Shown here one piece after another: positions 1-41,606 of a stretch of 64,000 nt of DNA. Numbering within the stretch: position 1 is the first letter of the stretch; each line of letters begins with the position of its first letter. The notes under the pieces are model-generated. The model was not told the DNA's origin and searched no databases. It saw only the letters and a list, made by a program, of their open reading frames with translations. Position numbers and translations under genes: made by a program. The stretch comes from Escherichia coli (GTDB lineage Bacteria; Pseudomonadota; Gammaproteobacteria; Enterobacterales; Enterobacteriaceae). Where the stretch lies: NCBI RefSeq assembly GCF_009931435.1, contig NZ_CP043414.1. One strand, 5' to 3'.

Positions 1-2
1 TG

Positions 3-3761: not shown

Positions 3762-3816
3762 TCTTAACGGGTCTGTAAATGGGGGCCAAGATGTAAATAA
3801 GATTCGCAATACGTCA

Positions 3817-5214
<1,398 letters not shown>

Positions 5215-5273
5215 TTATTCAGTCGATAGTAACCCGCCCTCCGGGGATAGCAAGCATTTTTTGCAAAAAGGGG

Positions 5274-5302
5274 TAGATGCAATCGGTTACGCTCTGTATA
5301 AT
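5274..5302 (+). promoter_or_regulatory. guaBA promoter region; -10 TATAAT at 5297-5302, possible PurR-like operator at 5277-5292
   Basis: TATAAT hexamer 44 nt upstream of the guaB ATG; ATGCAATCGGTTACGC resembles the PurR consensus with mismatches. Confidence 0.45.
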
Positions 5303-5345
5303 GCCGCGGCAATATTTATTAACCACTCTGGTCGAGATATTGCCC

Positions 5346-6812: not shown

Positions 6813-6880
6813 TTCTCTTCGCCCGACTTCATGTCGGGCGATTTATATTATCTGTTTCACTTGCCTCGGAATAAGCGTCA

Positions 6881-8458
6881 ATGACGGAAAACATTCATAA
6901 GCATCGCATCCTCATTCTGGACTTCGGTTCTCAGTACACCCAACTGGTTGCGCGCCGCGTGCGTGAACTGGGTGTTTACTGCGAACTGTGGGCGTGGGAT
7001 GTGACAGAAGCACAAATTCGTGACTTCAATCCAAGCGGCATTATTCTTTCCGGCGGCCCGGAAAGCACCACCGAAGAAAACAGCCCGCGTGCGCCGCAGT
7101 ATGTCTTTGAAGCAGGCGTACCGGTATTCGGCGTTTGCTATGGTATGCAGACCATGGCAATGCAGTTGGGTGGTCATGTTGAAGCCTCTAACGAACGTGA
7201 ATTTGGCTATGCGCAGGTTGAAGTCGTAAACGACAGCGCACTGGTTCGCGGTATCGAAGATGCTCTGACAGCAGACGGTAAACCTCTGCTCGATGTCTGG
7301 ATGAGCCACGGCGATAAAGTTACCGCTATCCCGTCCGACTTCATCACCGTAGCCAGCACCGAAAGCTGCCCGTTCGCCATCATGGCAAATGAAGAAAAAC
7401 GCTTCTATGGCGTACAGTTCCACCCGGAAGTGACTCATACCCGCCAGGGGATGCGCATGCTGGAGCGTTTTGTGCGTGATATCTGCCAGTGTGAAGCCCT
7501 GTGGACGCCAGCGAAAATTATCGACGATGCAGTAGCCCGTATCCGCGAGCAGGTAGGCGACGATAAAGTGATCCTCGGCCTCTCTGGTGGCGTGGATTCC
7601 TCCGTGACTGCAATGCTGCTGCACCGCGCAATCGGCAAAAACCTGACTTGCGTATTCGTTGACAACGGCCTGCTGCGTCTCAACGAAGCAGAGCAGGTTC
7701 TGGATATGTTTGGCGATCACTTTGGTCTGAACATTGTTCACGTTCCGGCAGAAGATCGCTTCTTGTCAGCGCTGGCTGGTGAAAACGATCCGGAAGCAAA
7801 ACGTAAAATCATCGGTCGCGTTTTCGTTGAAGTATTCGATGAAGAAGCGCTGAAACTGGAAGATGTGAAGTGGCTGGCGCAGGGTACTATCTACCCTGAT
7901 GTTATCGAATCTGCCGCGTCTGCAACCGGTAAAGCTCACGTCATCAAATCTCACCACAACGTGGGCGGCCTGCCGAAAGAGATGAAGATGGGCCTGGTTG
8001 AACCGCTGAAAGAGCTGTTCAAAGACGAAGTGCGTAAAATTGGTCTGGAGCTGGGCCTGCCGTACGACATGCTGTACCGTCACCCGTTCCCGGGACCAGG
8101 GCTTGGCGTTCGTGTGCTGGGCGAAGTGAAGAAAGAGTACTGCGACCTGCTGCGCCGTGCTGATGCCATCTTCATTGAAGAACTGCGTAAAGCGGACCTG
8201 TACGACAAAGTTAGCCAGGCGTTTACCGTGTTCCTGCCGGTACGTTCTGTTGGCGTAATGGGCGATGGTCGTAAATACGACTGGGTTGTGTCTCTGCGTG
8301 CCGTCGAAACCATCGACTTTATGACCGCACACTGGGCACATCTGCCGTACGATTTCCTTGGTCGCGTTTCCAACCGCATTATCAATGAAGTGAACGGTAT
8401 TTCCCGCGTGGTGTATGACATCAGCGGCAAGCCGCCAGCGACTATTGAGTGGGAGTAG
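6881..8458 (+). CDS. guaA: GMP synthase (glutamine-hydrolysing)
   Basis: 525 aa [25 protein letters not shown]...; 68 bp downstream of guaB. Confidence 0.97.
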
Positions 8459-8500
8459 GACTGGCTATAAATAGTAAATTAAGCCTTTCCAACTAACTTT

Positions 8501-8532
8501 AATGCCAGTCAGTTTGCTGACTGGCATTTTTT
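8501..8532 (+). terminator. Intrinsic terminator of guaBA
   Basis: 12 bp perfect stem (AATGCCAGTCAG / CTGACTGGCATT), 4 nt loop, then a T6 run; 43 nt after the guaA stop. Confidence 0.75.
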
Positions 8533-8752
8533 ATTGGTTTTTCATTGAGTTTATGACTTCTATTTTTAAGGCCGTAACTCTATAACATCGGCTATGGCCT
8601 AAAGATAAAAGCCATTACCAACAAAATGGCGGTATTCCAAAACAGTCTAGCCGGAAGTGCTTACAATGAGATCGATCAAATCGACAAATGAGATACTGGC
8701 CGTTGTGAGCGCCCGGCAACCGTAGCCGTAGGGGGCGAATTTAATGGCTTTG

Positions 8753-9529
8753 TTATGAGCCATTGGTAATCGCACCCATGACAATTTGAAAGAGTTCTTC
8801 TGCTCGATTAGTGGAGCCAATTGCACCTCTTTCTCTCGCCATTCTCTTGTGCTCTGGTAGATCTGAGGACGCATAGATCATAAAAGGAGTTTTGTCTCCC
8901 ATTGCGCGTAATCTTTCTAGTAAGACATAACCTTCTTGCGCCCCTTCTTTGCGATCCATATCCGAAATAATAGCTGCAAACTTATTTGTTTTTAACAATT
9001 CCAAGGCTTCGTCAGTTGAAAGAGCTAAAGCGAACTCTATTCCCTGTGCCTCAAATGCCTGTCTTTCGTAAACATTATTTTCTGGTCGATCATCCACCCA
9101 TAAAATACGATTTCGCCATTTTTCATGCTTACTCTGCCGTTTTGCATTGGATACAACGTTGACGATTTTTTGCAGTTGGCTTTCAGTGACCCCTGCACTA
9201 TTTTCAGGCTGTTTTGCTGTGGCGGCGGTCAATGATGCTGCTGTAGCTATTTGCGCTCTTAAAAAATTATTTTCATCTTTGAAATCTGACGGCCCGTAAA
9301 GCTTATTATGATGTTTCGCAACAAGCCAGAGAAAGCCAAGAAACACAATGACAGGAAAGAAAACCATGAAATAAATAAGGGGAGCTATATGCTCTGATAA
9401 GCCATTACCAAAGCCAACGACGAAAGAGGCAAATCCATAAACGAGAACAATAAAGAGTGCAATGATACCAAGAGGGCTTTTGGTAAATCCTATTGCAGTT
9501 TCAGCAAATTTCTCTGGTTCCATATCCAT
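8753..9529 (-). CDS. Membrane-anchored receiver-like (CheY-fold) protein: two predicted TM helices plus C-terminal pseudo-receiver domain
   Basis: 258 aa ORF. Hydrophobic stretches at about residues 19-41 and 48-72. Residues about 141-252 align by eye to CheY (ILWVDD for the beta1 acidic pair, IISDMD for the phospho-acceptor Asp, IYASS for the Thr/Ser position), but no lysine at the K109-equivalent position. Low GC, about 40 percent. Confidence 0.55.
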   Translation of the reverse strand: MDMEPEKFAETAIGFTKSPLGIIALFIVLVYGFASFVVGFGNGLSEHIAPLIYFMVFFPVIVFLGFLWLVAKHHNKLYGPSDFKDENNFLRAQIATAASLTAATAKQPENSAGVTESQLQKIVNVVSNAKRQSKHEKWRNRILWVDDRPENNVYERQAFEAQGIEFALALSTDEALELLKTNKFAAIISDMDRKEGAQEGYVLLERLRAMGDKTPFMIYASSDLPEHKRMARERGAIGSTNRAEELFQIVMGAITNGS

Positions 9530-27918: not shown

Positions 27919-28767
27919 TTAGGGTTCCTGACGTAAATAAATAGCCCGATAACAAATACTCACCAGCACTGCACCGCCGATAATATTACCCAGCATCACC
28001 GGGAGCAGATTGGCGGTAATAAAATGGCTGACCGTCAGTGCCGGAAAATTGTCTGCGCTACTGTGCGCCAGTTGCCAGAAGGAGGTAGGGGCGAAATGGC
28101 GAATGGCAATGGCGAACGGAATCACAAACAAATTGGCGATACAGTGCTCAAAGCCACTGGCGACAAACAGGGTGATGGGCAAAATCATGGCGACGATTTT
28201 GTCGCATAATGAACGTCCGCAATAACTCATCCACAGCGCCAGACAAACCATCAGATTGCACATAATGCCGAGGCTGACTGATTCAGTAAATGTATGATGC
28301 ATTTTGCCCTCGGCGCAGTGTAAAACCGCGACTCCCCACATCGCGTTTTCACTCATCACCAGCCCGGAAAACCAGATTAACAAACTGAAACAGGCAATAC
28401 CTGCCAGATTACCGCAGGCCACCAGAAGTGCATTAATCAGCCATGTTCGCAAGCTAATAACGCCCCGACTTTTTGCCATCACCGTCATTACCGACGAGGT
28501 GAACAGGCTGGTGCCGCAAACCGCCAGCAAAATAAAGCCGAGTGTAAAGCAAAGGCCACCCACCAGATGGGTTAATGCCTGTGAAGACGGGGCATCGGCG
28601 ATAACGGTAAGGTAAAAAGTAAATCCGATCGCCATAAACACGCCTGCGGACATCGCCATTAAAAAGACCGACACTTTGCTGCGGGCAATTTTATGGGCGG
28701 CAATCCGTTCAGCGATTGCCGCTTTTCTGGCGCTCAACTGCAAGTCGAAAGAGAGTTTGTTTCTCAT
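27919..28767 (-). CDS. focB: Formate channel FocB
   Basis: 282 aa FNT-family sequence immediately downstream of hyfR. Confidence 0.9.
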   Translation of the reverse strand: MRNKLSFDLQLSARKAAIAERIAAHKIARSKVSVFLMAMSAGVFMAIGFTFYLTVIADAPSSQALTHLVGGLCFTLGFILLAVCGTSLFTSSVMTVMAKSRGVISLRTWLINALLVACGNLAGIACFSLLIWFSGLVMSENAMWGVAVLHCAEGKMHHTFTESVSLGIMCNLMVCLALWMSYCGRSLCDKIVAMILPITLFVASGFEHCIANLFVIPFAIAIRHFAPTSFWQLAHSSADNFPALTVSHFITANLLPVMLGNIIGGAVLVSICYRAIYLRQEP

Positions 28768-28788
28768 GCATACTCCTGCAAAAACAGA

Positions 28789-30801
28789 TTACAACACCTC
28801 GCGAACCGAGATCCCCAGCCGCTGCATTCGTGACAGCAGCGTGGTGCGCTTCATCCCTAATCGCGTCGCCGCGCCACGGGGCCCGGCAACAATGCCATTG
28901 GTTTCTCGCAATACCTGAACAATGCGCTGACGTTCTTCTTCGTCATTCTCTGGCGTCGTCGGGTGCAGTAACTGCGCCATTGAACTGCGAAGCGCCGAAT
29001 TTTCATTTAACGTCGGCAGTAAACGGCTTTGTCGGACATTAAGATGTAAATTCAGACTGTTACCGCGAGTCAGTAGTACCGCTCGCTCAATCACGTTTTC
29101 CAGCTCGCGCACGTTGCCCGGCCAGTCCCACGACATCAACTGGCGTAGCGCCTCGGTCGGGATGGCGTCAATTGCGCGATTCATATGGCGCGCCATTTTT
29201 TGCGTGAAATGCTTTGCTAAAAGAGGGATATCTTCCGGACGGTCGCGCAGTGGCGGCAGTTCCAGTGGGAAGACATTCAGGCGATAAAAGAGATCGCTGC
29301 GAAACTGGCGATCTTCAACCATTTGCCACAAATCACGGTTGGTGGCGGCAATGACTCTGACATTCACCGGGATCGTTCTACTCCCACCGAGACGCTCAAT
29401 TTCCCGCTCCTGTAATACGCGTAGCAGTTTGGGCTGAAGTTCTAACGGCAGATCGCCAATTTCATCGAGAAATAACGTGCCGCCATCGGCAATTTCAAAA
29501 CGACCACGATGAGTGTTAATCGCGCCAGTAAATGCCCCTTTGTCGTGACCGAATAACTCACTTTCCAGAAGACTGGCGGGGATAGCGGCGCAGTTGATTT
29601 TGACCAGCGGCTTGTCGCGTCGCGGGCTCAGTTGATGGATCGCCCTGGCGATCACCTCTTTGCCGGTTCCGGTTTCACCACAAATCAACACCGTACTGTC
29701 GCTCTTCGCCACAATATCTACCTGCTGGAGTAAATCTTCCATTGCCTGGCTTTGGTAGATAATGTCACCGACGCCCAGATTCGAAAGGAGCTGCTCGCTA
29801 AGCTGGTGGTTTTCTTGCTGCAAGCTTTCCTGCAAATCGGTCATGCTGCGCCAGGCATCGGCATTGCCAACGGCAATAGCGATGCGATCGGCAATATGTT
29901 GTAGTAGCTGGCAGTTTTCCTCACTAAAGAGAGTGGGAGAGGTATGCGCCAGCAACAATGCACCCGGTGTATGGTTGCCAAAGGTGAGCGGTATAAGGAG
30001 CGCAGATTCGCAGCCGTTAGATGCAAGTAAGTGTAATAACGGGTCGCGTTGCCAGAGAAACAGATCGTCTGCACGGTGCGTCAAGGTCGGTTGTCGGGTT
30101 TGTAGCGTTTGTGTCAGCAATACACTTTCGCCAGGCATACAGCGTGGCAGACACGCACAATGTGAGGCAGAAAGATCGCTGCACCACAGGCTGAACTTCT
30201 CGTTCTTTCGATGATCGCCCAGTACCATACTGACTGAAGCCAGACCGAAAAAATGATGGATCTCACGAGCGACGTCAGCGATCAGATCGTCGAGATCAAG
30301 ATGTGACAACACTGCATTAGTGATATCCACCAGTACCCGATGATGATCGCGATCTTTCTCCAGCAAACGCAGCGCCACCTGCTGTTCTTCATCATTGAGC
30401 CATGATTGCAGAACCGGAGTGATTATGTGTGCCAGCCAGTTAAACAGTGTGCAATCCTGGGGAGTAAAACGACTGCCGTGGGTGCGAATAAAGCGTAGCT
30501 CCGCCATTCCACTACTGCCGAGAAGGACGGCGTGGCGCGAATAATCGACCATCTCGCCCTGATACTCTGTTGTTGCCGTCACATCGCTGCCATCATCATG
30601 GTAGCGGTAATAGAAGTTGCTTTTGAGAACATGCAGTTCAATAAGTTGTACCGGGCTGAACGGCGGCGGCAGCGGGATGAAGGCGCGTAATAAAGACGCC
30701 TTGCCGTGTTTCTGCGCTAACCGCTCCGCGAGCATTCCGTTTACCGCTTCAATTGTTATTCCTTGTGGCGGGGCAAACATCGCCTCGTCTGACATAGCCA
30801 T
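28789..30801 (-). CDS. hyfR: Sigma54-dependent activator of the hyf operon
   Basis: 670 aa; GAF-like N-terminus, AAA+ sigma54-interaction core (GETGTGKE, ESELFGH), C-terminal HTH. Confidence 0.92.
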   Translation of the reverse strand: MAMSDEAMFAPPQGITIEAVNGMLAERLAQKHGKASLLRAFIPLPPPFSPVQLIELHVLKSNFYYRYHDDGSDVTATTEYQGEMVDYSRHAVLLGSSGMAELRFIRTHGSRFTPQDCTLFNWLAHIITPVLQSWLNDEEQQVALRLLEKDRDHHRVLVDITNAVLSHLDLDDLIADVAREIHHFFGLASVSMVLGDHRKNEKFSLWCSDLSASHCACLPRCMPGESVLLTQTLQTRQPTLTHRADDLFLWQRDPLLHLLASNGCESALLIPLTFGNHTPGALLLAHTSPTLFSEENCQLLQHIADRIAIAVGNADAWRSMTDLQESLQQENHQLSEQLLSNLGVGDIIYQSQAMEDLLQQVDIVAKSDSTVLICGETGTGKEVIARAIHQLSPRRDKPLVKINCAAIPASLLESELFGHDKGAFTGAINTHRGRFEIADGGTLFLDEIGDLPLELQPKLLRVLQEREIERLGGSRTIPVNVRVIAATNRDLWQMVEDRQFRSDLFYRLNVFPLELPPLRDRPEDIPLLAKHFTQKMARHMNRAIDAIPTEALRQLMSWDWPGNVRELENVIERAVLLTRGNSLNLHLNVRQSRLLPTLNENSALRSSMAQLLHPTTPENDEEERQRIVQVLRETNGIVAGPRGAATRLGMKRTTLLSRMQRLGISVREVL

Positions 30802-30830
30802 CAACAGTCCTTATTAATGAGAAATCCTTC

Positions 30831-31244
30831 TCATGCAATTTTTCTGGCCATCATATAGATGGCCGGTTCCTGCACAATTTCATCCAACAGATGAATGAAT
30901 TGAATGCTACGCGCCTGCCACACAGACGTCGCGTCATCTGCCAGTGGCGCGAATGCCCGGGTCAACAGGGCGGTGTGGCTGGCGTCAATAACAATCTCAC
31001 CAAAGGTCATCACCCCCAGCATCTTACGTCGGGCTTGCTCCTCTTCGACCTGTGCAAGCCAATCTTCGTATTCCGTCTGTGGGCAGCGGAAGGCGACATT
31101 CAGACAATCAATCACGCCAACGTGATGACCGATAGCCAACGAGTAATACATTACCTGGGAGCTGTGTTCCGGCATCTCGTCGCTACTGGCGATAAATTTT
31201 TTTCGCAGCGTCCAGAAAACAATTTCCCCGCACTCCTCAGCCAT
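30831..31244 (-). CDS. hyfJ: Hydrogenase-4 component J
   Basis: 137 aa; overlaps the hyfI stop by 8 nt. Confidence 0.88.
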
Positions 31245-31995
31245 GTAACCCCCGGAGAACGCGAAAGAGTTGCTGAACGATACTATTGAGACGCGGATCG
31301 TCGGCTTCGCGCAACCAGGTGTTAACCCGATTTCCTGTAGGATCGTCGCTTAAATGGCGCAGGAGCCGATCGCAAATTTCTCGCCCCTGACGATAGCCCG
31401 CCAGCCGCCTCGCTTCTCGCTCAATGGCGATACGCTGTGATGGCGGGATCTGCGGCCACAGCGGTTGCATGGTCACCCCGGTGGGATCGCGATAATCCAC
31501 CGCGTGAATCTTCTGTTGTAGCAAACCGAGCGCCACGGCGAAACCGTGAATGGTGGCGGCCGGTGTTGGCGGGCAGCCGGGGATCCAAACATCAATGGGG
31601 ACAATGGTGTCGCTGCCGCCCCAGACGCTGTAGAGATCGTGGAAAATACCGCCGCCGACACCGCACGCGCCGTAGGAAACACAGATTTTATGATCGGGGG
31701 CAGACTCATATGCCCGAAGTGCAGGCATACGCATCGCCCGGGTGACTGCGCCAGTAAATAACAAAATATCGGCGTGACGCGGTGATGAAACAACCTTAAT
31801 GCCAAAACGTTCTGCGTCGAATACTGGTGTGATGGCGGCAAAAATTTCGATTTCGCAGGCGTTGCAGCCGCCGCAATCGACGCGATAAACGTAGGCCGAG
31901 CGACGGATATCCTGTAACAAATGCTGCTTCATCTTTTGCGTTTGTTCGTCCAGCGTGATGGGCTGGCTGACATGTTGCGTAAGCACTGGACTCAT
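31237..31995 (-). CDS. hyfI: Hydrogenase-4 small subunit-like component I
   Basis: 252 aa NuoB-like sequence. Confidence 0.9.
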
Positions 31996-32537
31996 AGCTG
32001 CTCCTTAGCCACCAGCGGTTCATCTGTGTCGTCGTTGATCAGCGTCGCGCGTTGTTTGCATTCCGGGCAGACGCTCGCTTGCGCCCACAACATTTCGCGG
32101 TTTTGTGGTGCATTTTGTTGCTGTGCCAACAGTTCTGCAGCCAGTGCGACGGTTTTTTGCGGGGCAAACGGGCGTTCGCAACGGCTGCAACGTTGTAGCT
32201 GGAACGTCGCGCGGGTATAGAGATCGGCTTTATTGGTGACGGTCAGTTCAAAGTTATTGGTAAGCTGAATGGCTCTGGTCGGGCACACTTCTTCACAACG
32301 TCCGCAGTAAATACAACGCCCCAGATAGAGCTGCCAGGTGCGCGTATTTTGCTGGTCGTCGGTCTGGATAGTCAGCGCATTTGCCGGACAAGCACAGGCG
32401 CAGGCACCGCAGGCAATACATTGGCTGGGCATCAGGTCAGGTTTCCCGCGAAAGCCTGGGCTGACCTCCAGTGGCGCGAAGGGATATTTCACCGTCGCGG
32501 TTCCGGCGCGCATAATAGTTTTCAGTAACTTCAGCAT
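31992..32537 (-). CDS. hyfH: Hydrogenase-4 ferredoxin-like component H
   Basis: 181 aa with two 4Fe-4S Cys clusters. Confidence 0.9.
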
Positions 32538-32546
32538 TTTCTGTCC

Positions 32547-34262
32547 TTACTTCAGCGGCGAACGGTTACGATCAATGCCGTAGCGTTCGATCTCTTTATA
32601 CGGCACGGTTTTTGACTGGCGCTTGCGCACATCAACCAGCGTCACACGGTCGGTACAGGAGTAGCAGGGATCAAGGCTACCGATAATCAGCGGTGCGTCA
32701 GAAACGGTATTGCCGCGCAGCATGTAACGCAGCACTGGCCAGTTGGCGTAGGTGGCGGCACGACAGCGCCAGCGGAACAATTTTTGGTTATCACCGAGCA
32801 TGCTCCAGTGCACGTCTTCACCGCGTGGCGCTTCAACAAAGCCCAGCGCGAATGCGTGAGGTTTATAGCTAAAGCCTTCGGTCAGCAGCGGGGTATCCGG
32901 CATGTTGTCGAGGGCAAATTCCAGCATTGCCAGCGAATCAAACGTCTCTTTGACACGGACCATCACGCGGGAGAAGACATCGCCGCCGGTAAAGGTAAAC
33001 AGCGTTTTTGGAATATTGCCGTAGTCGGCGTAGGGGTGATCAAAGCGCAAATCACGGGCAAAACCACTGCCACGGATCAGCGGCCCTACGGGGCTATAAT
33101 CACGGGCGATTTGTCGGTCGAGAATGCCAATGCCCTGAGTGCGTTGTTCCATATTCGGCGTGGCAAGCAGCATCTCTACCAGCTCCGACACGTCGGCGCG
33201 CATCTCGCGCACCAGTTTCATCGTTTGCAGACGTTGCTCTTTGAGAATATCGCGGCGAACACCACCAATCAGATTCAGACCGTAGGTTTTACGCGACCCG
33301 GTCAGCAATTCCGCCATCGTCATCGACTTTTCCCGCACGCGGAAAAATTGCATAAAACCGGTATCAAAACCAACAAAATGGCAGGAGAGGCCAAGGTTGA
33401 GCAAATGACTATGCAGCCGTTCGACTTCCAGCAGAATCGAGCGAATAGTATGCGCTCGTTGCGGCACCTCAATCCCCAGTGCATTTTCAACCGAGTTGGT
33501 ATAGGCCACACTGTGGGCAAAACCGCAAATCCCACACACGCGGTCCGACAAGAAGGTCACTTCGTTGTAGCCCATCCGCGTTTCTGCCAGTTTCTCCATG
33601 CCGCGATGGACATAAAACAGGCGGTAATCAGCATCGACAATTTGCTCGCCATCCACAAACAAGCGGAAGTGACCTGGTTCATCGGAGGTGATATGCAGCG
33701 GGCCAACAGGGATCACCCGCGCATCGCTGTTGCCCTCGTTGATAAACGGATACGTTTCGGTATCAGTCGTCGGTTCAGGGCGCAGTCGATAATCCATCGC
33801 GTCTTTGCGCAGCGGATGCATGTCTTCCGGCCAGTCATCGGGCAACACCAGGCGACGCTGATCCGGCAGGCCAACCGGAATCAGCCCGTACATATCGCGA
33901 ATTTCTCGCTCGCCCCAGACCGCGGCAGGGACGCGCGGTGTGACTGACGGAAACTCCCTACTGTCGGCATCGACCAGTGCCTTCACCACGATCCAGCATT
34001 TTTCGGCCCCTTCCATTGAAAGGGCATAATAAACCGCGTAATGACCGTTAAGTGTCCGCTCGTCGTTGCCAAACAGGACCGGAAGCCAGCCATCATGTTG
34101 ATAATAAAGATAATGTACAACGTCAGGCAGCAGATTTATTTTCACCGTAATGGTGACCTGTTCAGGCGTTTGTCGCTCTTCATCCAGCACCGCGCCGGGG
34201 AACTGCGTTTTCAGGGCGGCGAGAATCGCTTCGCCACGATTTGACGATGAATTAACGTTCAC
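32547..34262 (-). CDS. hyfG: Hydrogenase-4 large (NiFe) subunit G
   Basis: HycE-like sequence. Start placed at the GTG at 34262, overlapping the hyfF stop by 11 nt; the exact start is uncertain (the ORF track extends to 34307). Confidence 0.85.
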
Positions 34263-35832
34263 TGTGTTTCTCCGAAACAGATGCGGTGCCTGAAGGCAAA
34301 AAATCATGCCAGGTGCTACGTTGTGCAGGCAGGTCGTGCGTCCCTGAGAGGACTATAGTGGAAGCGCCCGCCAGGATCCTGATGACAGGTTGTGGAATAT
34401 GCGTTCCCATCGCCAGCATCATGACCAGCAGAATCACCATTGGCGAGGTGGTCAACCAGCCAAGTTCACCCCGGTTAACGGCCTGCGGCGGTTTCGCCAT
34501 TAACACCCGCGCAGCCATCCGTACCAGGCCCGCCAGCACCAGCGTTAACAGCAATAACAGCAGGACGATAATCAACAGGTGATTACGAGCCAGTCCGGCG
34601 GTAACGGTCATAAATTCGCTAAGAAAAATGTTGAAGGGCGGCATCCCGGCCAGCGCCAGCGCACCGCCGCCAAACAGCACGGCGGTAAATGGCATGATTT
34701 TGAGCATTCCGCAGACGACGTTGAGATCGCGCGTGCCGTACTTGAGCAGTACATTGCCGGAACCGCAGAACAGCAGCGTTTTTGCCAGACTGTGGTTTAA
34801 GGTGTGCAGCAGCGCAGCAAAAATTCCCAGCGGCCCGCCAATGCCTAGCGCCACCGCGACCAGTCCCATGTTCTCCACGCTGGAGTACGCCAGCAGACGC
34901 TTAATGTCCCGCTGTACCAGAATGAAAAATGCCGCCACGGCAACCGACAACATGCCGAAGATGAGCAACAACCGGTTGGGGAAATCGCTGCCGATGGCCT
35001 GGCAAATAATGATGTAATAGCGAATCAGCACCAACAGCGCGCAGTTCAGCAATACGGCGGAGAGCAGGGCGCTGACCGGACTCGGCGCTTCACTGTGAGC
35101 ATCCGGCAGCCAGGCGTGCATGGGAAATAGCCCGGTTTTGGTGCCAAAGCCAATTAGCACAAACACAAAGGCCAACAGCATTAATGTTGGGTCAAGCAAG
35201 GACGATTGCTTAAGAACCTCGCTCCAGAATATCGCCATTTCTGCCTGCGGCATAACGCTGGCGGCGTTGGCGTATACCAGCACGGTACCGAACAGACCAA
35301 AAGCGACACCAACAGTACAAATAATGATGTACTTCCATGCAGCTTCCAGAGATGAACGCTGACCGTAAATGCCTACCAGAAACGCCGAGCTTAAGGTGGT
35401 GGCTTCGATTGCCGCCCACATCACAATCAGGTTATTGCTGGTAACAACCAGCAGCATGGTGAACAAAAACAGATGGAAGAAACCGTAGTAATCGCACAGC
35501 GTAACGGGTGAAATCTCGCCGTGAGCCACTTCATGACGCATGTAGCCAATCGAGTAAACACCGGTGAGAAAGCCAATCACACCAAGAATGGCGAGGAACA
35601 AACCGCCCAGACCATCAATATGAAGCCACAGTCCGGCGGCGAATATTTCTTCCGCATCCGCGGCGGTTTTGACCACCCAGAGTGCCAGAATCAGCAGCAG
35701 TGTGATCCCTAAGCTATGTAATACTGTCACCGTGCGAGTCGCAGAGTGTCCCCGTTTCCGGCAGGCAAAACAGAGCAGCGAAAAAAGCAGCGGCGTGAGC
35801 AGGAGTAAAGCGAACATCACAGAATAACTCAT
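34252..35832 (-). CDS. hyfF: Hydrogenase-4 membrane subunit F (antiporter-like)
   Basis: 526 aa polytopic NuoN/NuoM-like protein. Confidence 0.9.
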
Positions 35833-35836
35833 CTCA

Positions 35837-36487
35837 TTATCCCTTCAGCGCGGTCAAGTTGTTCACGTCCAGCGTGCCGTGGGTACGCCATATTTTTCTT
35901 GCCAGCAACACCATCACAACGACGGCGAAAATGGCGTCGGTAGCGATACCAATTTCCACCAGTTCCGGTGCACGCCAGGCAAGAAGTGCCAGCACCAGAT
36001 GGGAGCCGTTTTCCATCAGGCAGTAACCAAAAATTTGCCGCAGGATATTGCGCTGGCTGACAATGCACAGCAGGCCAAGCAGAAAATGACCTAACGCCAC
36101 CGCCAGCGCCGGTTTCAGCCCGGTAGCCATCGGTAGCTTCACGGGCTGAACGACAAATGCGCAAAGCAGGACAATTAATGCCGCGAGCAATGCCATCATT
36201 GCCGGACCGAATAACGCTTTTTCCGGGAGGTTCTGGGGAATATTTCGTGCAGCGTAAATCATGATTAACGGTACCATCAGTACTTTGGTGATAAAGGCGC
36301 TGGCGGACCAGATCAGCAGTTGCTCTGCGGCGAACAGGCACGAGAGGGTGGCGAAAATAGACACCAGCACCAGCGACTGGCAGGCGTAAAATCCGCATGA
36401 CAGGCGATAGCTTTTGACACTAATCACAAACAGCGATGTCAGCATCATCAGTCCCGCCAGATTATTTACGATCATAGAACCGGTCAT
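35837..36487 (-). CDS. hyfE: Hydrogenase-4 membrane subunit E
   Basis: 216 aa membrane protein. Confidence 0.88.
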
Positions 36488-36498
36488 TCATCATCTCC

Positions 36499-37938
36499 TT
36501 ACTGCAACCAGGTCGCGGCGAATACGCTGGAAATCAGCGACATCACAATCAGTACAATCAACACCAGGCGCATTGATCCTGGCAGCGGTGCGGCATCGGC
36601 GACGGCTTCGCTCGGTTTGCCAGGCACGACGCGACCAAACCAGCGAATAAACCAGGCGAAACTGGCGACCGATTCAATCATCAGCAGAATCATGGCGGGC
36701 AGCAGGATCCAGTACTCCACTGACAACGAAAAACCGGCAGCAAACAGTGGGAATTTACTGAAGAAGCCGTTGAACGGCGGCACGCCAGTAATCGCCAGCG
36801 CGGCCACGCAGAAACCCACGCCTGGCAACGGCAGGGTGTGCAATACGCCACGCAGACGCGGCAACAAGCGCGTGCCGCAGCTGTAACTCAGCGCACCTGC
36901 TACAAGGAAAAACAGGCTTTTAGCGAACGCGTGGTTGACGATGTAGGCGATGCTGCCCTCCAGTGCCAGCCGCGAGCCGAAGATGGAGAGCGACAAGCCG
37001 AAGAACATCCAGCCAAGTTGAGTGATGGTCGACCAGGCCAGCAACCGCTTCATATCCTGCTGCGGCAAATACATCAGAAAGCCGTAAAGAATGGTGACCA
37101 GTGCCATGACCATGCCAACGCCGCCAATCACATGCGGGATATTGCCGCCGTCGATAATGGCGCGGGCAAAAATGTAAACGCCCACTTTCACCATCGATGC
37201 GGCGTGGAGATAGGCGCTGATCGGTGTTGGCGCTTCCATTGCATCCGGTAGCCACGCTTGCATCGGTAGCTGGGCCGATTTTCCCCACGCGGCAAACAGG
37301 ATGCCGCCATAAACCAGATAACGTGCGTCGCCGTGTAACTCGCTCATCGCGCTAAGCGCAAACGTTCCGGTCTGCAAAAACAGCGTGGCGGCGGCAAGAT
37401 ACAACCCCAGCGAACCGATATGAGTGATAAGTAACGCTTTTAGTGCTGAACGTTGCGCTTTATCGCTCTGGTAATAACTGATCAATGCCCAGGAGCAGCC
37501 GCCCGTAATTTCAAAAAACAATAACTGACCGAGCAGCGTCGAGGAGAGTACCAGTCCCGCCATCGCGCCGATAAAAACCAGCAAAAATGCGTAATAACGA
37601 TTCGTGCCGTTATGCGGGTGTTCGCGATTTTTATCCGTCAGATAACCCGTGGAGTAGATCGTGACCAGCAAACCGAGGAACACCACCACAAACAGAATCA
37701 GCGTACTCACGCGATCAATGACCAGGCCAAACAACGCCACATCCCCCACGTTGACCAACGTCAACGTGACGGCAACTTTATCGGCCTGATAAAACGCGGA
37801 GATCAGCGACAACATGCACAGCGTGGTCAGCGCGGCGAACAAAATCCCCCATTCGGCGGCCCGACGTTGTGGCGAAAACGAAACGACCAGTGCGCCGATA
37901 AAAGGCAGCAATAACGTCGTCAGAGCAAGATTTTCCAT
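36499..37938 (-). CDS. hyfD: Hydrogenase-4 membrane subunit D (antiporter-like)
   Basis: 479 aa. Confidence 0.9.
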   Translation of the reverse strand: MENLALTTLLLPFIGALVVSFSPQRRAAEWGILFAALTTLCMLSLISAFYQADKVAVTLTLVNVGDVALFGLVIDRVSTLILFVVVFLGLLVTIYSTGYLTDKNREHPHNGTNRYYAFLLVFIGAMAGLVLSSTLLGQLLFFEITGGCSWALISYYQSDKAQRSALKALLITHIGSLGLYLAAATLFLQTGTFALSAMSELHGDARYLVYGGILFAAWGKSAQLPMQAWLPDAMEAPTPISAYLHAASMVKVGVYIFARAIIDGGNIPHVIGGVGMVMALVTILYGFLMYLPQQDMKRLLAWSTITQLGWMFFGLSLSIFGSRLALEGSIAYIVNHAFAKSLFFLVAGALSYSCGTRLLPRLRGVLHTLPLPGVGFCVAALAITGVPPFNGFFSKFPLFAAGFSLSVEYWILLPAMILLMIESVASFAWFIRWFGRVVPGKPSEAVADAAPLPGSMRLVLIVLIVMSLISSVFAATWLQ

Positions 37939-37954
37939 ATTCCGTCAGTGCTCC

Positions 37955-38902
37955 TTACAGACCGGTTAACCAGAAGACCCAGGCAAGCGCAGCAAGGCTG
38001 AAGCCAAGCCAGGTCACATGGTGAATGAGTAAAAAACGCCCGCGTGCCAGCGTGTTTTCTGCGATAGAGGCCAGAACAAAAATCAGCAAAACCTTGAGCA
38101 GCGTAACGACAAGTGAAGTCAGCAGGCAGGTGAGAGAAAGCTCTTGCGCGCGCCCAAAGGGCAGAAACAGGGCCACAAACAGTGATGCCATCACGACCTG
38201 TTTCAGCCCCAGCCCCAACTTCGCCAGCGCCAGCCCGGCACCGGAATATTCGGTCAGCGGGCCTTCCTGTAATTCCTGTTCTGCTTCAGCAACATCAAAG
38301 GGAATTTTTCCCATCTCAATGAAGCAGGCAAAACCACAGGCCAGTAACGCCAGTACGGTGGTTAGTGGCGAGTTCCAGCCCGTCGCCAGCGTCTTGCTGA
38401 TCATCTCGATATGCGTGGAATCCGCTATCAGCGCCAATACCAGCAGTGAGAGAATGAGCATTGGTTCGACCAGAATGCCGAGCGTCAACTCGCGACTGGC
38501 ACCGACTCCCGCAAACGGGCTTCCGGTATCCAGCCCGGAAAGAGCAAAGAAAAAACGAAACAGGGCAAGAAGATAGATAAGGGTGATCAGATCGCCGCCG
38601 CCCGCAAAAGGGGAAACAGTAATAAATAGTGGTAGGGCCATCGCCAGCACCAGCATGCTGCTGATTAATACCCACGGCATCAGGCGGAACATCAGACCTG
38701 AAGATGTCGGCGCAACTTCCTGGCGTTTAAACAGTTTGTGGATATCGCGATAATCCTGCCAGATCCCCGGTCCGCGGCGGGAGTGCATACGCGCGCGTAT
38801 CTGCCGGGAAATCCCCGTAAAAAGCGGGGTTAGCGCCAGCAGAATCACGGCCTGTGCTAACGCAAAAATGATCAGATATCCGTCGCAAAGAGTTTGTCTC
38901 AT
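37955..38902 (-). CDS. hyfC: Hydrogenase-4 membrane subunit C (NuoH-like)
   Basis: 315 aa from the ATG at 38902 (MRQTLCDGYLIIFALAQ...). Confidence 0.9.
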   Translation of the reverse strand: MRQTLCDGYLIIFALAQAVILLALTPLFTGISRQIRARMHSRRGPGIWQDYRDIHKLFKRQEVAPTSSGLMFRLMPWVLISSMLVLAMALPLFITVSPFAGGGDLITLIYLLALFRFFFALSGLDTGSPFAGVGASRELTLGILVEPMLILSLLVLALIADSTHIEMISKTLATGWNSPLTTVLALLACGFACFIEMGKIPFDVAEAEQELQEGPLTEYSGAGLALAKLGLGLKQVVMASLFVALFLPFGRAQELSLTCLLTSLVVTLLKVLLIFVLASIAENTLARGRFLLIHHVTWLGFSLAALAWVFWLTGL

Positions 38903-38912
38903 GGTGATTTCC

Positions 38913-40931
38913 TTAGACGGCAATAGCGATTAGCAGCACAACCAGTGCGGCGACCACATACAGGCAATAGAGACGAAAGTCGCCGCTTTGCAGATGCTGT
39001 ATTTCTTTGGCCAGCCGTTGGGTGGCGCTCACGATGGGGCGGATCACCCGCTCATCCCAAAAGGGTTCTGTGCTCTGAGCCCTGGCGGTGATGTGCGCGA
39101 GACCTTTGTTCAGCCTCAGCGTAGGGTCGAGCTGTTGTCGTAGACGAAATAGCGCAGAAAAGACCACACGCAGCGGCTGCATCACGCCATTGCCTGACGG
39201 GGCCATCGCATTTTCCCAGCCGTAGCCGCATGCCCAGGCATCTCCTGTGCGACGAAACGCTGCGCGTCGCGAACGACACCACAGCCAGTAAAGGCCAGGC
39301 AGCAAAGGCATCGCCAGTAGTAACAGCAACAGTAATGAGGGAGTGACCCGTGTATGAAACGTGCCGGGGACAAGTGCCATTCCGCTGGCGACAGTGACGG
39401 GAGGGGTATTGGTAAACGCATGGGCAATGTGCATTATCTTCGGTGCCAGCCAACTGGCACTAAGCGCAATGAATACGCAGAGTGCCGCGAGCAGTAGCAT
39501 GGCGACGATCATCGTATTTGGCACTTCCTGTGCCTCTTCAGCGTGTGTACTGCGCGGCGCACCACAGAAAGTAATGCCGTACATTTTGACGAAGCACATT
39601 ACTGCCAGCCCACCAGTGACTGCCAGCATCACCATAGCAATAGGACCCGCAAGTTGTAGCGCTACGGCTTCCACACGACTTAGTGAGAACAGCGACTGCC
39701 AGGTGTACCATTCGCTGATAAAACCATTCAGCGGAGGAATGGCTGATATCGCGAGGCAACCAATCAGGCATGCTGCGGCTGTCCACGGCATCCGTTTTGC
39801 CAGTGCCCCCATTTTTTCCATGTCGTGGGTATGCAAACGCGAAATAATCGCACCCGCGCCGAGAAATAGCAGCCCTTTGAACAGCGCATGGTTGAGCAGA
39901 TGAAACAGTGCGCCGAGCAGTCCAACCACGGTGAGCAGCGGGGCGTGCAGTGACAGACCGACCATGGACACACCGACCGCCAGCAAAATAATGCCGACGT
40001 TTTCGACGGTACTCCAGGCCAGCAGCCGTTTGATATCCTGTTCCGCCAGCGCATACAGCACGCCCAGGAGCGCGGAGATTGCGCCGATCGCCATCACCAG
40101 AATGCCCCACCACAGCGGCAAACCCGTTTGCGCCAGCAGATCCATCGCCACTTTCAGGATGCCGAAAATACCGATTTTGACCATTACGCCAGACATCAAC
40201 GCCGAAGCGTGCGATGGTGCGGCAGGGTGAGCGCGCGGCAACCAGCTGTGCAACGGCATCATCCCGGCTTTCGCGCCAAAACCGAAGAAGGCCAGCAGGA
40301 ACACCGCCGACGCCAGCCCCGGAGAAAGTGAAAGCGTGCGGAAACTGGCAAAATCGAGGTTGCCGCTTTCGCGCCACATCAGCAAGAAGGCAATCATAAT
40401 CAGCACCGATCCGGCGTGGGCGATAAAAAAGTAGAGCATGCCAGCGTTGATTGACGTTTTATCCTGCCTGGCAATGACCAGAAACCAGGAAGACAGCGAC
40501 ATCATTTCAAACAGCACGATGAACCAAAAAGCGTTGTCCATCACCAGCAGGGCAACCATCGATGCGATGAAAAGATTCATAAAGAAGCCCATCGCCGCCG
40601 CGCCTTTGCCCTCGTATTCGCGCATATAAGTCAATGAATAGAGCGAACAAACCACCACCAGCAAGGAGATAACCAGCACCATAAATGCCGAGAGGCTATC
40701 CATTCGCAGGGTTAAATCGGCAAAGTCAAAAGGCGTGGCAAAACGGGCGACTAAAGTTACGCCTGCATGTAATTGCGTAATTCCGCTGATGATGCCAATC
40801 GCGCCGCCCACCAGCGATGTGATGCCGGAAAGCTTAATAGCCAGTCTGTCCAGACCGAGTAAAAACAGCGAAGCCAGACTGGCAAACAGATAGAGGATCA
40901 GCGACCAGATTAATAATTGCAGGGCATCCAT
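38913..40931 (-). CDS. hyfB: Hydrogenase-4 membrane subunit B (antiporter-like)
   Basis: 672 aa NuoL-like protein; start overlaps the hyfA stop. Confidence 0.92.
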   Translation of the reverse strand: MDALQLLIWSLILYLFASLASLFLLGLDRLAIKLSGITSLVGGAIGIISGITQLHAGVTLVARFATPFDFADLTLRMDSLSAFMVLVISLLVVVCSLYSLTYMREYEGKGAAAMGFFMNLFIASMVALLVMDNAFWFIVLFEMMSLSSWFLVIARQDKTSINAGMLYFFIAHAGSVLIMIAFLLMWRESGNLDFASFRTLSLSPGLASAVFLLAFFGFGAKAGMMPLHSWLPRAHPAAPSHASALMSGVMVKIGIFGILKVAMDLLAQTGLPLWWGILVMAIGAISALLGVLYALAEQDIKRLLAWSTVENVGIILLAVGVSMVGLSLHAPLLTVVGLLGALFHLLNHALFKGLLFLGAGAIISRLHTHDMEKMGALAKRMPWTAAACLIGCLAISAIPPLNGFISEWYTWQSLFSLSRVEAVALQLAGPIAMVMLAVTGGLAVMCFVKMYGITFCGAPRSTHAEEAQEVPNTMIVAMLLLAALCVFIALSASWLAPKIMHIAHAFTNTPPVTVASGMALVPGTFHTRVTPSLLLLLLLAMPLLPGLYWLWCRSRRAAFRRTGDAWACGYGWENAMAPSGNGVMQPLRVVFSALFRLRQQLDPTLRLNKGLAHITARAQSTEPFWDERVIRPIVSATQRLAKEIQHLQSGDFRLYCLYVVAALVVLLIAIAV

Positions 40932-41548
40932 TAGCGTTGCTCCTGAGTGAGTGAAAGGGGATCCTCCCCGCCATTGGCAAACCAGCTTGCGGCAAGGCGC
41001 TGTTTTTCTTTCATCTGACGTTGCAGGCTATCGTCGGTGATCAGACGTAACGCATGATTCGGGCAAGCGCGAACGCAGGCCGGACCTTCTGGCAAGAAAT
41101 CACACAGGTCGCATTTCACCGCGACGGTCTGGACACCCGGTTCCCAGCGCAGCAAAGCATGTTGGGTCGGCGCGTTTTCTTCGCCGTCTTTGAGTGAGCC
41201 GTCAGCCTGAAAAACATATTGCGCAGGGGCATTCACCGGACGGCTTCCTGAAGCGCTGATTGCGCCAAATGGGCAGACCACGGCGCAAAGCTTGCAGCCA
41301 ATACAGAGGCTTTCGTTGAGTTGGATCGCATCATCTCTCTGGGAGATGGCATTGACCGGGCAGACCTGCAGGCAAGGGGCTTCCTCACAGTGATGACACA
41401 CGACAGGGGCAGTGAGTGTTGACGTCTTCGCCAGGGCCAGGCGCGGGTGTTGCTGTAAACCTTGCGTTTTATGCACGTCCGAACAGGCAGCGAGACAGGT
41501 ATTACATCCTGTACACCACAGTGGTTCGGCCACCACAAAGCGGTTCAT
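40931..41548 (-). CDS. hyfA: Hydrogenase-4 ferredoxin-type component A
   Basis: 205 aa from the ATG at 41548 (MNRFVVAEPLWCTGCNTC...), with 4Fe-4S Cys motifs. Confidence 0.9.
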   Translation of the reverse strand: MNRFVVAEPLWCTGCNTCLAACSDVHKTQGLQQHPRLALAKTSTLTAPVVCHHCEEAPCLQVCPVNAISQRDDAIQLNESLCIGCKLCAVVCPFGAISASGSRPVNAPAQYVFQADGSLKDGEENAPTQHALLRWEPGVQTVAVKCDLCDFLPEGPACVRACPNHALRLITDDSLQRQMKEKQRLAASWFANGGEDPLSLTQEQR

Positions 41549-41588
41549 GTCGGCTCCTTGAAAATGATATGAAACATTGCATTTCATA

Positions 41589-41606
41589 TTGCATAAAGGA
41601 TGCCAG
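41589..41606 (-). promoter_or_regulatory. Sigma54 (-24/-12) promoter of the hyf operon
   Basis: Minus-strand reading cTGGCATcctttATGCAa with GG-N10-GC spacing, about 40 bp upstream of the hyfA ATG; consistent with the HyfR enhancer-binding protein encoded in the same operon. Confidence 0.55.

Follow-up and report, generated by a model that had tools for sequence, protein, structure and literature searches.

A complete hyf operon with a full-length hyfG allele in Escherichia coli and an internal 48-bp deletion in the K-12 reference gene

Introduction

The hyf operon of Escherichia coli K-12 consists of hyfABCDEFGHIJR-focB, b2481-b2492 (Andrews et al. 1997, as cited elsewhere). For decades researchers have disagreed about the activity of E. 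coli hydrogenase-4, and the system has been described as a 'silent operon' and a 'long-standing mystery'. The FHL-2 (formate hydrogenlyase-2) systems of Pectobacterium atrosepticum and Trabulsiella guamensis produce H2 from formate (PMC7384014; bioRxiv 10.1101/563510), and HyfE is a membrane subunit specific to FHL-2 (bioRxiv 10.1101/563510). A further relative of the HyfG large subunit is HycE, the large subunit of E. coli hydrogenase-3 / FHL-1 (PDB 7Z0S, 7Z0T), whose Arg395 belongs to the canopy-to-bulk proton pathway proposed from the FHL cryo-EM structure (PMC9474812). Here we describe the hyf operon in a 64,000-nucleotide stretch of an E. coli genome (contig NZ_CP043414.1), hereafter the window.

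Results and Discussion

Organisation of the hyf operon

The region is, as read from its coding sequences, a complete and undamaged hyf operon for hydrogenase-4 / formate hydrogenlyase-2 (Table 1). The genes hyfABCDEFGHIJ lie on the minus strand, followed by hyfR and focB, and all twelve reading frames proved intact in the ORF check, with the expected lengths and no internal stops. The identification of the operon and its gene order in the initial annotation are right, as they agree gene for gene with the annotation that RefSeq gives for the closest strain, which is 99.7% identical to the window across the 2.1-kb hyfG region. The hyfA-J set is complete, including HyfE and the extra antiporter-like HyfD and HyfF, each intact, and orthologous loci have the same Pfam content. 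There is nothing new or unusual about the operon as such. As an intact copy of a textbook operon it is of little consequence in itself, and an identical 571-aa HyfG sequence already occurs on about a thousand contigs in public databases.

Table 1. Positions of the hyf genes and associated elements in the window
Feature	Position	Strand	Description
focB	27919..28767	-	282 aa; formate channel; final cistron of the operon
hyfR	28789..30801	-	670 aa; sigma-54 activator; operon member lying beyond the span of the initial annotation
hyfJ	30831..31244	-	137 aa; HycH-like
hyfI	31237..31995	-	252 aa; hydrogenase small subunit; 8-nt overlap with hyfJ
hyfH	31992..32537	-	181 aa; 4-nt overlap with hyfI
hyfG	32547..34262	-	571 aa, full-length allele; [NiFe] large subunit
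C-terminal peptide region of HyfG	32550..32645	-	cleavage-site pattern per PMC7384014, PMC7654741
C-terminal Ni-Fe ligand motif C533-Y-S-C536	32655..32666	-	alignment to HycE
Direct repeat copy 2, GCCCGTGATT	33050..33059	-	10 bp; start-to-start spacing 48 nt
48-bp segment, HyfG A386-F401	33060..33107	-	kept here; K-12, BL21(DE3) and around half the hyf-bearing E. coli lack it
R397 codon	33072..33074	-	equivalent to HycE Arg395; Arg in 119/120 distant relatives
Direct repeat copy 1, GCCCGTGATT	33098..33107	-	10 bp
N-terminal Ni-Fe ligand motif C243-G-I-C246	33525..33536	-	gapless alignment to HycE
hyfF	34252..35832	-	526 aa; final 11 nt shared with hyfG
hyfG GTG start codon	34260..34262	-	RefSeq, orthologues, Shine-Dalgarno
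GGAG Shine-Dalgarno of hyfG	34270..34273	-	7 nt upstream of GTG
Upstream in-frame ATG inside hyfF	34305..34307	-	first start codon of 586-aa maximal ORF; judged a non-start
hyfE	35837..36487	-	216 aa; membrane subunit
hyfD	36499..37938	-	479 aa
hyfC	37955..38902	-	315 aa; ATG at 38902; 10-nt gap after hyfB
hyfB	38913..40931	-	672 aa
hyfA	40931..41548	-	205 aa; ATG start; AAGGAG Shine-Dalgarno
Sigma-54-type -24/-12 element TGGCATCCTTTATGCA	41590..41605	-	putative; 42-57 nt upstream of hyfA ATG

The overlaps listed in the initial annotation, of 8 nt between hyfI and hyfJ, 4 nt between hyfH and hyfI (junction ATGA), 1 nt between hyfB and hyfA (junction TAATG) and 11 nt between hyfF and hyfG, are all confirmed by the gene coordinates, and the other junctions are gaps of 4-29 nt. 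Short stop/start overlaps are common within bacterial operons. Since they also recur in orthologous hyf operons (I/J by 8 nt in L018 and L019, H/I by 4 nt in L018), the hyf overlaps are real but unremarkable. Each start has its own Shine-Dalgarno, and the short gaps or 1-11-nt overlaps would, from their geometry, represent the usual layout for coupled translation of the subunits of one complex.

The sigma-54-type element TGGCATCCTTTATGCA upstream of hyfA is a putative hyf promoter, an assignment that goes back to earlier literature (reportedly Skibinski 2002). Across the whole window the sigma-54 pattern was found 12 times against 7.8 expected, a count not above chance, so the promoter identity of TGGCATCCTTTATGCA derives from that literature, the scan giving no more than its position upstream of hyfA; hyfR is intact. 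The ATG of a longer hyfA ORF, at 41587, adjoins this element and is not used by RefSeq.

Start codon of hyfG

The initial annotation considered the hyfG start ambiguous, noting that the frame stays open to 34307, where the first start codon is an ATG 15 codons before the GTG, and that the GTG start gives 571 aa against a length of about 555 aa given there for HyfG. Each of these observations is accurate, the last for K-12 HyfG (HYFG_ECOLI / WP_001102321.1), but the ambiguity itself is not borne out, and comparison of the sequences makes the GTG start at 34262 well supported. RefSeq starts hyfG at the same GTG, 11 nt inside hyfF, in both K-12 (555 aa) and the closest strain (571 aa). The arrangement GGAGAA-N5-GTG is common to the window and its orthologues, and in all three orthologous operons compared from other genera (L018, L019 and L020) a hyfG GTG follows GGAGA(A). 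Because the RefSeq and orthologue starts are predictions too, they do not count as wholly independent evidence. As an initiator, GTG is also the weaker codon. The published HyfG numbering Gly-85/Ala-86 (PMC7654741) fits the GTG start in a residue check on the window protein; the literature yielded no experiment that maps the N-terminus of HyfG.

Initiation at the upstream ATG would add a 15-residue extension, giving a 586-aa protein, and is very improbable, although the frame is open, the ORF contains no earlier start codon than this ATG and the extension is uninterrupted in 17 of 17 compared E. coli sequences. No Shine-Dalgarno precedes this ATG. The extension lies entirely within hyfF, and the two E. 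coli SNPs found within the 75 nt upstream of hyfG are silent in the hyfF frame but change residues when read in the hyfG frame. In the corresponding stretch just upstream of the GTG, in-frame stops occur in two of the three orthologous operons, in which hyfG starts at the homologous GGAGA-GTG. Alignment with HycE and the HyfG orthologues, the check proposed in the initial annotation, revealed no comparable N-terminal extension in HycE or in any orthologue examined; the orthologues have 10-18 residues ahead of a conserved Gly, a number that ATG 34307 would raise to 24.

The opposite shift, a true start 16 codons downstream as the initial annotation implied, draws on the arithmetic coincidence 571 - 555 = 16 and has a negligible probability. 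Codon 17 of the window hyfG is CTG, so the 555-aa product cannot come from a later start; the K-12 gene is annotated from the same GTG, and the K-12 and window proteins are identical over residues 1-49. A shifted start in either direction, as the cause of the 571-versus-555 difference, was thus ruled out by the protein and DNA alignments together with the CTG codon. The false lead is thereby removed, and the hyfG start codon is not in doubt.

An internal deletion in K-12 hyfG

The two HyfG proteins align end to end with a sole gap of 16 residues, at 386-401, and hyfG of both K-12 and BL21(DE3) lacks the corresponding 48 bp (Table 1). The discrepancy in length, taken in the initial annotation as a sign of an uncertain start, arises because the reference gene of K-12 has lost these bases internally. 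The K-12 allele would have retained the same start and lost the 48 bp by deletion between the two GCCCGTGATT copies.

Flanking direct repeats could stem as well from an insertion or duplication in the lineage of the window strain, with the 555-aa K-12 form ancestral. The probability of such an event is practically nil, as the 38 bp between the repeats are not copied from neighbouring sequence and the residues encoded by the segment are present, with hardly any variation, in orthologues of over 20 genera, HycE, MbhL, complex I subunits and distant representatives. Of 111 aligned sequences, made up of the window and 110 representatives of orthologue clusters, 109 contain the segment; the exceptions are the K-12 sequence, which had been added, and a single chimeric contig from a metagenome with a K-12-type C-terminal half. 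The segment is also found in HycE, in MbhL and in 120 of 120 distant representatives, among which G393 and R397 are each conserved in 119. Because the segment is kept in all these groups, the deletion is, on the alignments, the derived state; the orthologue and distant-homologue alignments ruled out an insertion in the window strain in place of a K-12 deletion.

It is thus very probable that the window contains a complete hyf operon in which hyfG starts at GTG 34262 and encodes the ancestral 571-aa protein, while the K-12 allele is 48-bp-deleted and likely impaired. The K-12 protein, the yardstick of the initial annotation, is the unusual one, without a 16-residue core segment that holds a residue of the proposed proton pathway. 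No mention of the 48-bp deletion was found in the searched literature naming hyfG, a search outside which Andrews 1997, Self 2004 and Sargent 2016 fell, and silence within it is not proof that the deletion is unreported.

Distribution and origin of the deletion

Among 5426 complete E. coli genomes, the full-length allele of the window is carried by 2179 and the deletion allele by about 2113, i.e. about 49% of hyf-bearing genomes, whereas about 1134 lack the hyf operon. A single origin of the deletion followed by recombination is favoured by the haplotypes, because the deletion alleles have a common core haplotype: all six sampled are identical over ~650 nt surrounding the indel and extending to its right, a core with 20 variable sites across which full-length alleles vary, although six deletion alleles make a small sample. 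Repeated independent deletion, the 10-bp repeat acting as a slippage hotspot, is unlikely in the face of this common core. It would account for the finding that left-hand haplotypes differ among deletion alleles and that each of these alleles has a nearly identical full-length partner, as in the pairs K-12 and 2013C-4991 (no difference at the other 2268 positions), 23713 and M9, and CV839-06 and YY76-1; 23713, however, appears recombinant, its left half M9-like and its right half K-12-like.

Conserved elements of HyfG and predicted effect of the deletion

HyfG joins a NuoC-like domain at the N-terminus to a catalytic domain that is NuoD-like. In the window protein PF00329 (residues 39-155, 85 bits), PF00346 (171 bits) and PF00374 (54 bits) all exceed their gathering cut-offs, and the fusion of NuoC/30-kDa-like and NuoD/49-kDa-like domains is that of group 4a [NiFe]-hydrogenase large subunits of the HycE/HyfG type. 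The two CxxC motifs of this group (N-terminal RxCGxC, C-terminal DPCxxC) are present, with C243/C246 and C533/C536 matching the HycE ligands. All proton-transfer residues are found: D194/E195, R480/D531 and H286/E439/R397, the counterparts of HycE D192/E193 in the beta1-beta2 loop, R478/D529 in the canopy and H284/E437/R395 in the pathway. R539 is followed by a 32-residue VTLV... tail, the predicted C-terminal assembly peptide, which fits the HyfG-type cleavage site described after a conserved Arg (PMC7384014). Since segment 386-401 with G393 and R397 is retained, the window HyfG represents a catalytic subunit with all conserved elements.

In contrast, K-12 HyfG lacks R397. The lost segment forms a well-ordered helix-turn-short-helix element containing the near-invariant G393 and R397, as seen in the AlphaFold2 model and the alignments. 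Its motif may be linked to the human NDUFS2 Met292Thr disease variant, which is present in the literature; this possible link is not used in our conclusions. The AlphaFold2 models give a pLDDT of 98 for residues 381-410 of the window protein and a fall to 78 at the junction of the K-12 allele, with the overall fold kept; such models are unreliable for deletion effects, and the drop is therefore weak evidence. The PF00346 score declines from 171 bits to 130 bits in the K-12 allele.

These comparisons indicate that the K-12 reference allele is likely impaired. The view that the two alleles are functionally equivalent, the indel being a neutral length polymorphism of no bearing on hydrogenase-4 (Hyd-4) activity, is somewhat unlikely. 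The deletion is in frame and very common, D404 and R406 are kept, and the predicted fold survives; Hyd-4-dependent effects have been reported for BW25113 hyfG mutants (PMC10758574) and Hyd-4-catalysed H2 production by Mirzoyan 2017, as cited in PMC11841067, these reports on K-12 derivatives coming from one group. Equivalence has nevertheless to be reconciled with the loss of two residues, G393 and R397, each kept by 119 of the 120 distant homologues, one of them the counterpart of Arg395 in a conserved proton pathway. In small samples, dN/dS is 0.22 among deletion alleles versus 0.06 among full-length alleles, and deletion alleles carry the radical changes P196L and R200L beside the catalytic E195. 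Moreover, no Hyd-4 H2 was produced in K-12 strains when the hyf operon was placed under Phyc or T5 promoters (PMC7654741).

A stronger reading, to be held tentatively, is that K-12 hyfG, studied for ~25 years, is a naturally occurring allele that has lost its function or is strongly impaired, the 48-bp deletion having taken away a buried helix-turn element and the conserved arginine of the proposed proton pathway. This would help to explain a silent or inactive hydrogenase-4 / FHL-2 in laboratory E. coli even with forced transcription, and strains such as the source of the window, or O157:H7, would then have the genes for a complete, potentially active FHL-2. The deletion could bear on the long dispute over this enzyme, and a crippled reference allele may contribute to the apparent silence of K-12 hydrogenase-4. 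For work on FHL-2, a strain with the full-length hyfG allele and an otherwise intact operon is preferable.

Comparison with known systems

The window operon shares with that of K-12 the same twelve genes in the same order, the flanking bcp/gcvR upstream, the junction geometry and the hyfG GTG, at about 97.8% nucleotide identity over 14.3 kb. The K-12 hyfG differs in lacking the 48 bp (residues 386-401), which reduces it to 555 aa, and in four further residues (H50Q, T168S, T321I and M348L). HycE (chain 7z0s_E) aligns with HyfG residues 7-571 (E = 1e-292), the only gap falling at the engineered His-tag of the crystallised chain. Common to both are the NuoC-like/NuoD-like fusion, the CxxC motifs, the Asp/Glu of the beta1-beta2 loop, the canopy Arg/Asp, the proton-pathway His/Glu/Arg and a 32-residue C-terminal peptide, with the cleavage-site context R|MTVV in HycE and R|VTLV in the window HyfG. 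HycE is nevertheless a paralogue, and its complex has two membrane subunits in contrast to the five of hyf (HyfB, C, D, E and F). The FHL-2 operons of P. atrosepticum and T. guamensis contain the same hyfA-J structural gene set, and their HyfG proteins are about 80% identical to that of the window, including the 16-residue segment. Both clusters carry hyfK, encoding a HycI-like protease, whereas the hyf operon of E. coli has no such gene, and E. coli HycI can replace the HyfK protease (PMC7654741).

The hyf operon and its junctions

The minus-strand feature is the already known hyf operon in intact form, with hyfA to hyfJ followed by hyfR and focB, and with bcp and gcvR located upstream. An AGGAG- or GGAG-type Shine-Dalgarno sequence precedes every cistron, and none of the cistrons, all of which were checked, contains an internal stop. 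The overlapping junctions described in the initial annotation were borne out in every detail by the spacings extracted from the window sequence by script and by the coordinates, which equal those of the RefSeq annotation of 2013C-4282, the closest complete genome (99.7% identity across the hyfG region). These overlaps are seen again in orthologous operons elsewhere among the Enterobacteriaceae and are real and ordinary, as stop/start overlaps generally are in operons encoding multi-subunit complexes. A separate in-frame 6-nt indel polymorphism affects hyfH at about codons 44–46: the gene comprises 546 nt (181 aa) in the window, K-12 and most strains, and 540 nt (179 aa) in 23713, YY76-1, M9, EC2641, BL21(DE3) and strain 44.

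Features of the hyf operon and of the window, with hyfG alleles and hyf lesions in E. coli genomes
Feature	Window position	Observation	Genomes or source
hyf operon	27919-41548 (-)	hyfA–hyfJ, hyfR, focB	
hyfG start codon	34262	GTG	
Upstream in-frame codon of hyfG	34307	ATG	
hyfG segment	33060-33107	48 bp, HyfG residues 386–401	
10-bp direct repeat, two copies	33098-33107; 33050-33059	perfect	
hyfH indel	32402-32407	6 nt, in-frame	
Insertion downstream of guaA	8455-11762	3.3 kb	
Adhesion domain-containing protein gene, 3' part	1-3761	adjoins xseA	
Junction hyfA→hyfB		overlap 1 nt (TAATG)	
Junction hyfB→hyfC		gap 10 nt	
Junction hyfC→hyfD		gap 16 nt	
Junction hyfD→hyfE		gap 11 nt	
Junction hyfE→hyfF		gap 4 nt	
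Junction hyfF→hyfG		overlap 11 nt	
Junction hyfG→hyfH		gap 9 nt	
Junction hyfH→hyfI		overlap 4 nt (ATGA)	
Junction hyfI→hyfJ		overlap 8 nt	
Junction hyfJ→hyfR		gap 29 nt	
hyfG present			4294/5426 complete E. coli genomes
Whole hyf operon present			4291/5426 complete E. coli genomes
hyf operon absent		bcp/gcvR alone matching	about 1134/5426 complete E. coli genomes
Full-length hyfG allele			2179/5426 complete E. coli genomes
Deletion hyfG allele			about 2113/5426 complete E. coli genomes
hyfF		internal stops	23713, YY76-1, RM8082 (RefSeq)
hyfF		frameshifts	2013C-4991, 90-9280 (RefSeq)
hyfG		stop K325*	YY76-1 (RefSeq)
hyfG		frameshift	SMBL (RefSeq)
hyfB, hyfD, focB		hyfB frameshift, roughly 210-nt hyfD deletion, focB frameshift	strain 44 (RefSeq)

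The hyfG start codon and the two lengths of HyfG

The start of hyfG had been considered ambiguous, a worry that proved unfounded: the evidence supports initiation at the GTG, with a small residual doubt. A GGAG lies 7 nt upstream of this codon, and hyfG is likewise GTG-initiated in three orthologous operons of other genera (L018, L019 and L020), with GGAGA(A) 0–5 nt upstream and, in two of the three, in-frame stops just before the GTG. The annotated N-termini of the orthologues and of HycE, the paralogous large subunit of hydrogenase-3, place 10–18 residues ahead of the conserved Gly of a G-x-x-[YI]-[LV]-A motif; this fits the GTG and not the upstream ATG, from which 24 residues would precede the same Gly in HyfG. 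The 75 nt before the GTG carry two SNPs among 17 E. coli sequences, synonymous for hyfF and non-synonymous for the hyfG frame. The HyfG residue numbering in print (Gly-85/Ala-86, PMC7654741) also agrees with the GTG.

The doubt had also drawn on product length, 571 residues from the GTG against about 555 given for HyfG. Both figures are correct, the former for the window and the latter for K-12 HyfG (1668 nt, WP_001102321.1; UniProt reference HYFG_ECOLI). RefSeq places the start of hyfG at one and the same GTG, 11 nt inside hyfF, in K-12 and in 2013C-4282, where hyfG has 1716 nt and encodes 571 residues. The two proteins align end to end with residues 386–401 as the sole gap, so the difference is internal and says nothing against the start. 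A later start as the source of the 555-residue form is ruled out by this internal gap and by codon 17 of the window hyfG, which is CTG and therefore leaves 555 residues unreachable from any later start. When 5426 complete E. coli genomes were searched, many matches, K-12 included, likewise aligned in two pieces with 48 bases absent. The missing segment is bounded by copies of the perfect direct repeat GCCCGTGATT, an arrangement that bears the signature of slippage or short-homology deletion. The exact 571-residue HyfG of the window is already public, on about a thousand contigs.

The 48-bp difference is a deletion in K-12

The window and K-12 proteins were aligned with 110 orthologue cluster representatives (73–99% identity) from Enterobacter/Kosakonia, Salmonella, Yokenella, Serratia, Proteus, Morganella, Providencia, Pectobacterium, Dickeya, Brenneria, Gilliamella, Shewanella and other genera. 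The segment, with the nearly invariant consensus ARD[YF]SPVGP[ML][IV]R[AG]SGF, is present in all of them except K-12 and one metagenome contig, a visible chimera whose C-terminal half is K-12-type. No gap crosses it in an alignment of HyfG with HycE and Pyrococcus MbhL. Among 120 distant representatives spanning the region (30–74% identity) none has lost the segment, and Gly-393 and Arg-397 are each kept in 119. This presence across orthologues, HycE, MbhL and distant relatives indicates that K-12 carries a deletion; an insertion in the window hyfG is ruled out by the same near-universal distribution. The atypical allele is thus that of the K-12 reference and not that of the window.

Allele frequencies were counted with a 100-nt probe across the segment. 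The deletion is found in MG1655, W3110, DH1 and JM109, and in BL21(DE3), which encodes an identical 555-residue HyfG and also has frameshifts in hyfC and hyfD, while O157:H7 and O145, together with the window, carry the full-length allele. In a comparison of 17 hyfG sequences, each taken with 300 nt on either side, the six deletion alleles have a single core haplotype in common, which covers the surroundings of the indel and the stretch to its right; they diverge further left, and that of strain 23713 looks recombinant. The common core haplotype favours a single origin of the deletion, spread by descent and recombination. Outside the segment, the full-length hyfG of 2013C-4991 equals K-12 at each of the 2268 aligned positions; it is either the progenitor haplotype from before the deletion or the product of a patch repair. 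Within its 48 bp there is one change, GAT to GAA (D388E), which disrupts copy 1 of the 10-bp direct repeat. In this small sample, pairwise dN/dS was 0.22 among deletion alleles versus 0.06 among full-length alleles, and the deletion alleles carry P196L and R200L, adjoining the catalytic Glu-195.

Residues carried by the deleted segment

HyfG Arg-397, within the segment, aligns with HycE Arg395 (after subtraction of the 12-residue tag of the solved chain). In the cryo-EM structure of FHL (PMC9474812), HycE Arg395, His284 and Glu437 form a putative proton pathway that starts at canopy residues Arg478/Asp529; the pathway is described there as shared by FHL, MBH, soluble hydrogenases and complex I (NDUFS2 R297). 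The window HyfG retains all five counterparts, His-286, Glu-439, Arg-397, Arg-480 and Asp-531. In its AlphaFold2 model (mean pLDDT 92; segment 98) the segment comprises the end of helix 383–389, a turn, a short helix 394–397 and a loop. The model of the K-12 allele retains the overall fold, with pLDDT down to 78 at the junction, a drop that counts as weak evidence. Both family scores are about 40 bits lower for the K-12 allele (PF00346, 171 to 130; NF004739, 247 to 207). Loss of the segment would be expected to impair catalysis in K-12 HyfG.

Further hyf lesions and window surroundings

According to RefSeq, several of the sampled strains, from both allele classes, have further hyf lesions (related loci L004, L007, L008, L010, L012, L013, L022 and L023); assembly errors may account for some of the frameshift calls. 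Together with the genomes devoid of the operon, these lesions suggest ongoing decay of hyf in parts of E. coli. Two 740-residue proteins (P0004 and P0005), 96% identical to HyfG and with extra 4Fe-4S ferredoxin Pfam domains, have a length equal to 555 + 4 codons (read-through stop and 9-nt spacer) + 181, which fits a read-through fusion of the 555-residue HyfG with HyfH on a few long contigs.

The insertion directly downstream of guaA, which sets the window apart from its closest genomes, has three ORFs on the minus strand (504, 131 and 258 aa) whose counterparts in matching genomes are annotated as an integrase-core-domain protein, a response regulator and an AAA-family ATPase. It looks like an IS21-like mobile element. 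Just 27 of the 5426 complete E. coli genomes match at least 80% of it in one place. The adhesion domain-containing protein gene, whose 3' part adjoins xseA, is very large (8085 nt in strain 2020CK-00188). Positions 1-25000 are covered to at least 80% in only 663 genomes, so this window end is variable in E. coli. Identity of at least 99% was reached by three complete genomes over the left 25 kb, by 18 over the hyf block and by none in the collection over the right-hand 22.5 kb (best 98.9%); the source lineage is therefore sparsely sampled by the complete genomes of E. coli.

Relation to Hyd-4 activity

Among the papers examined that name hyfG, none mentions the internal deletion; earlier notice of it, as in Andrews 1997, Self 2004 or Sargent 2016, may exist. 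The groups working on FHL-2 have called that of E. coli a 'long-standing mystery' (bioRxiv 10.1101/563510), and put the difficulty with E. coli Hyd-4 down to low expression, the absence of a protease gene and disagreement over assay conditions (PMC7384014). In their hands K-12 produced no Hyd-4 hydrogen even when expression was driven from Phyc or T5 and the HycE C-terminus was swapped in (PMC7654741). Hyd-4-dependent phenotypes described by other groups in BW25113 (PMC10758574, and Mirzoyan 2017 as cited in PMC11841067) argue against a completely dead enzyme. As a by-product of the present comparison, the atypical hyfG of the K-12 reference may bear on this old question of Hyd-4.
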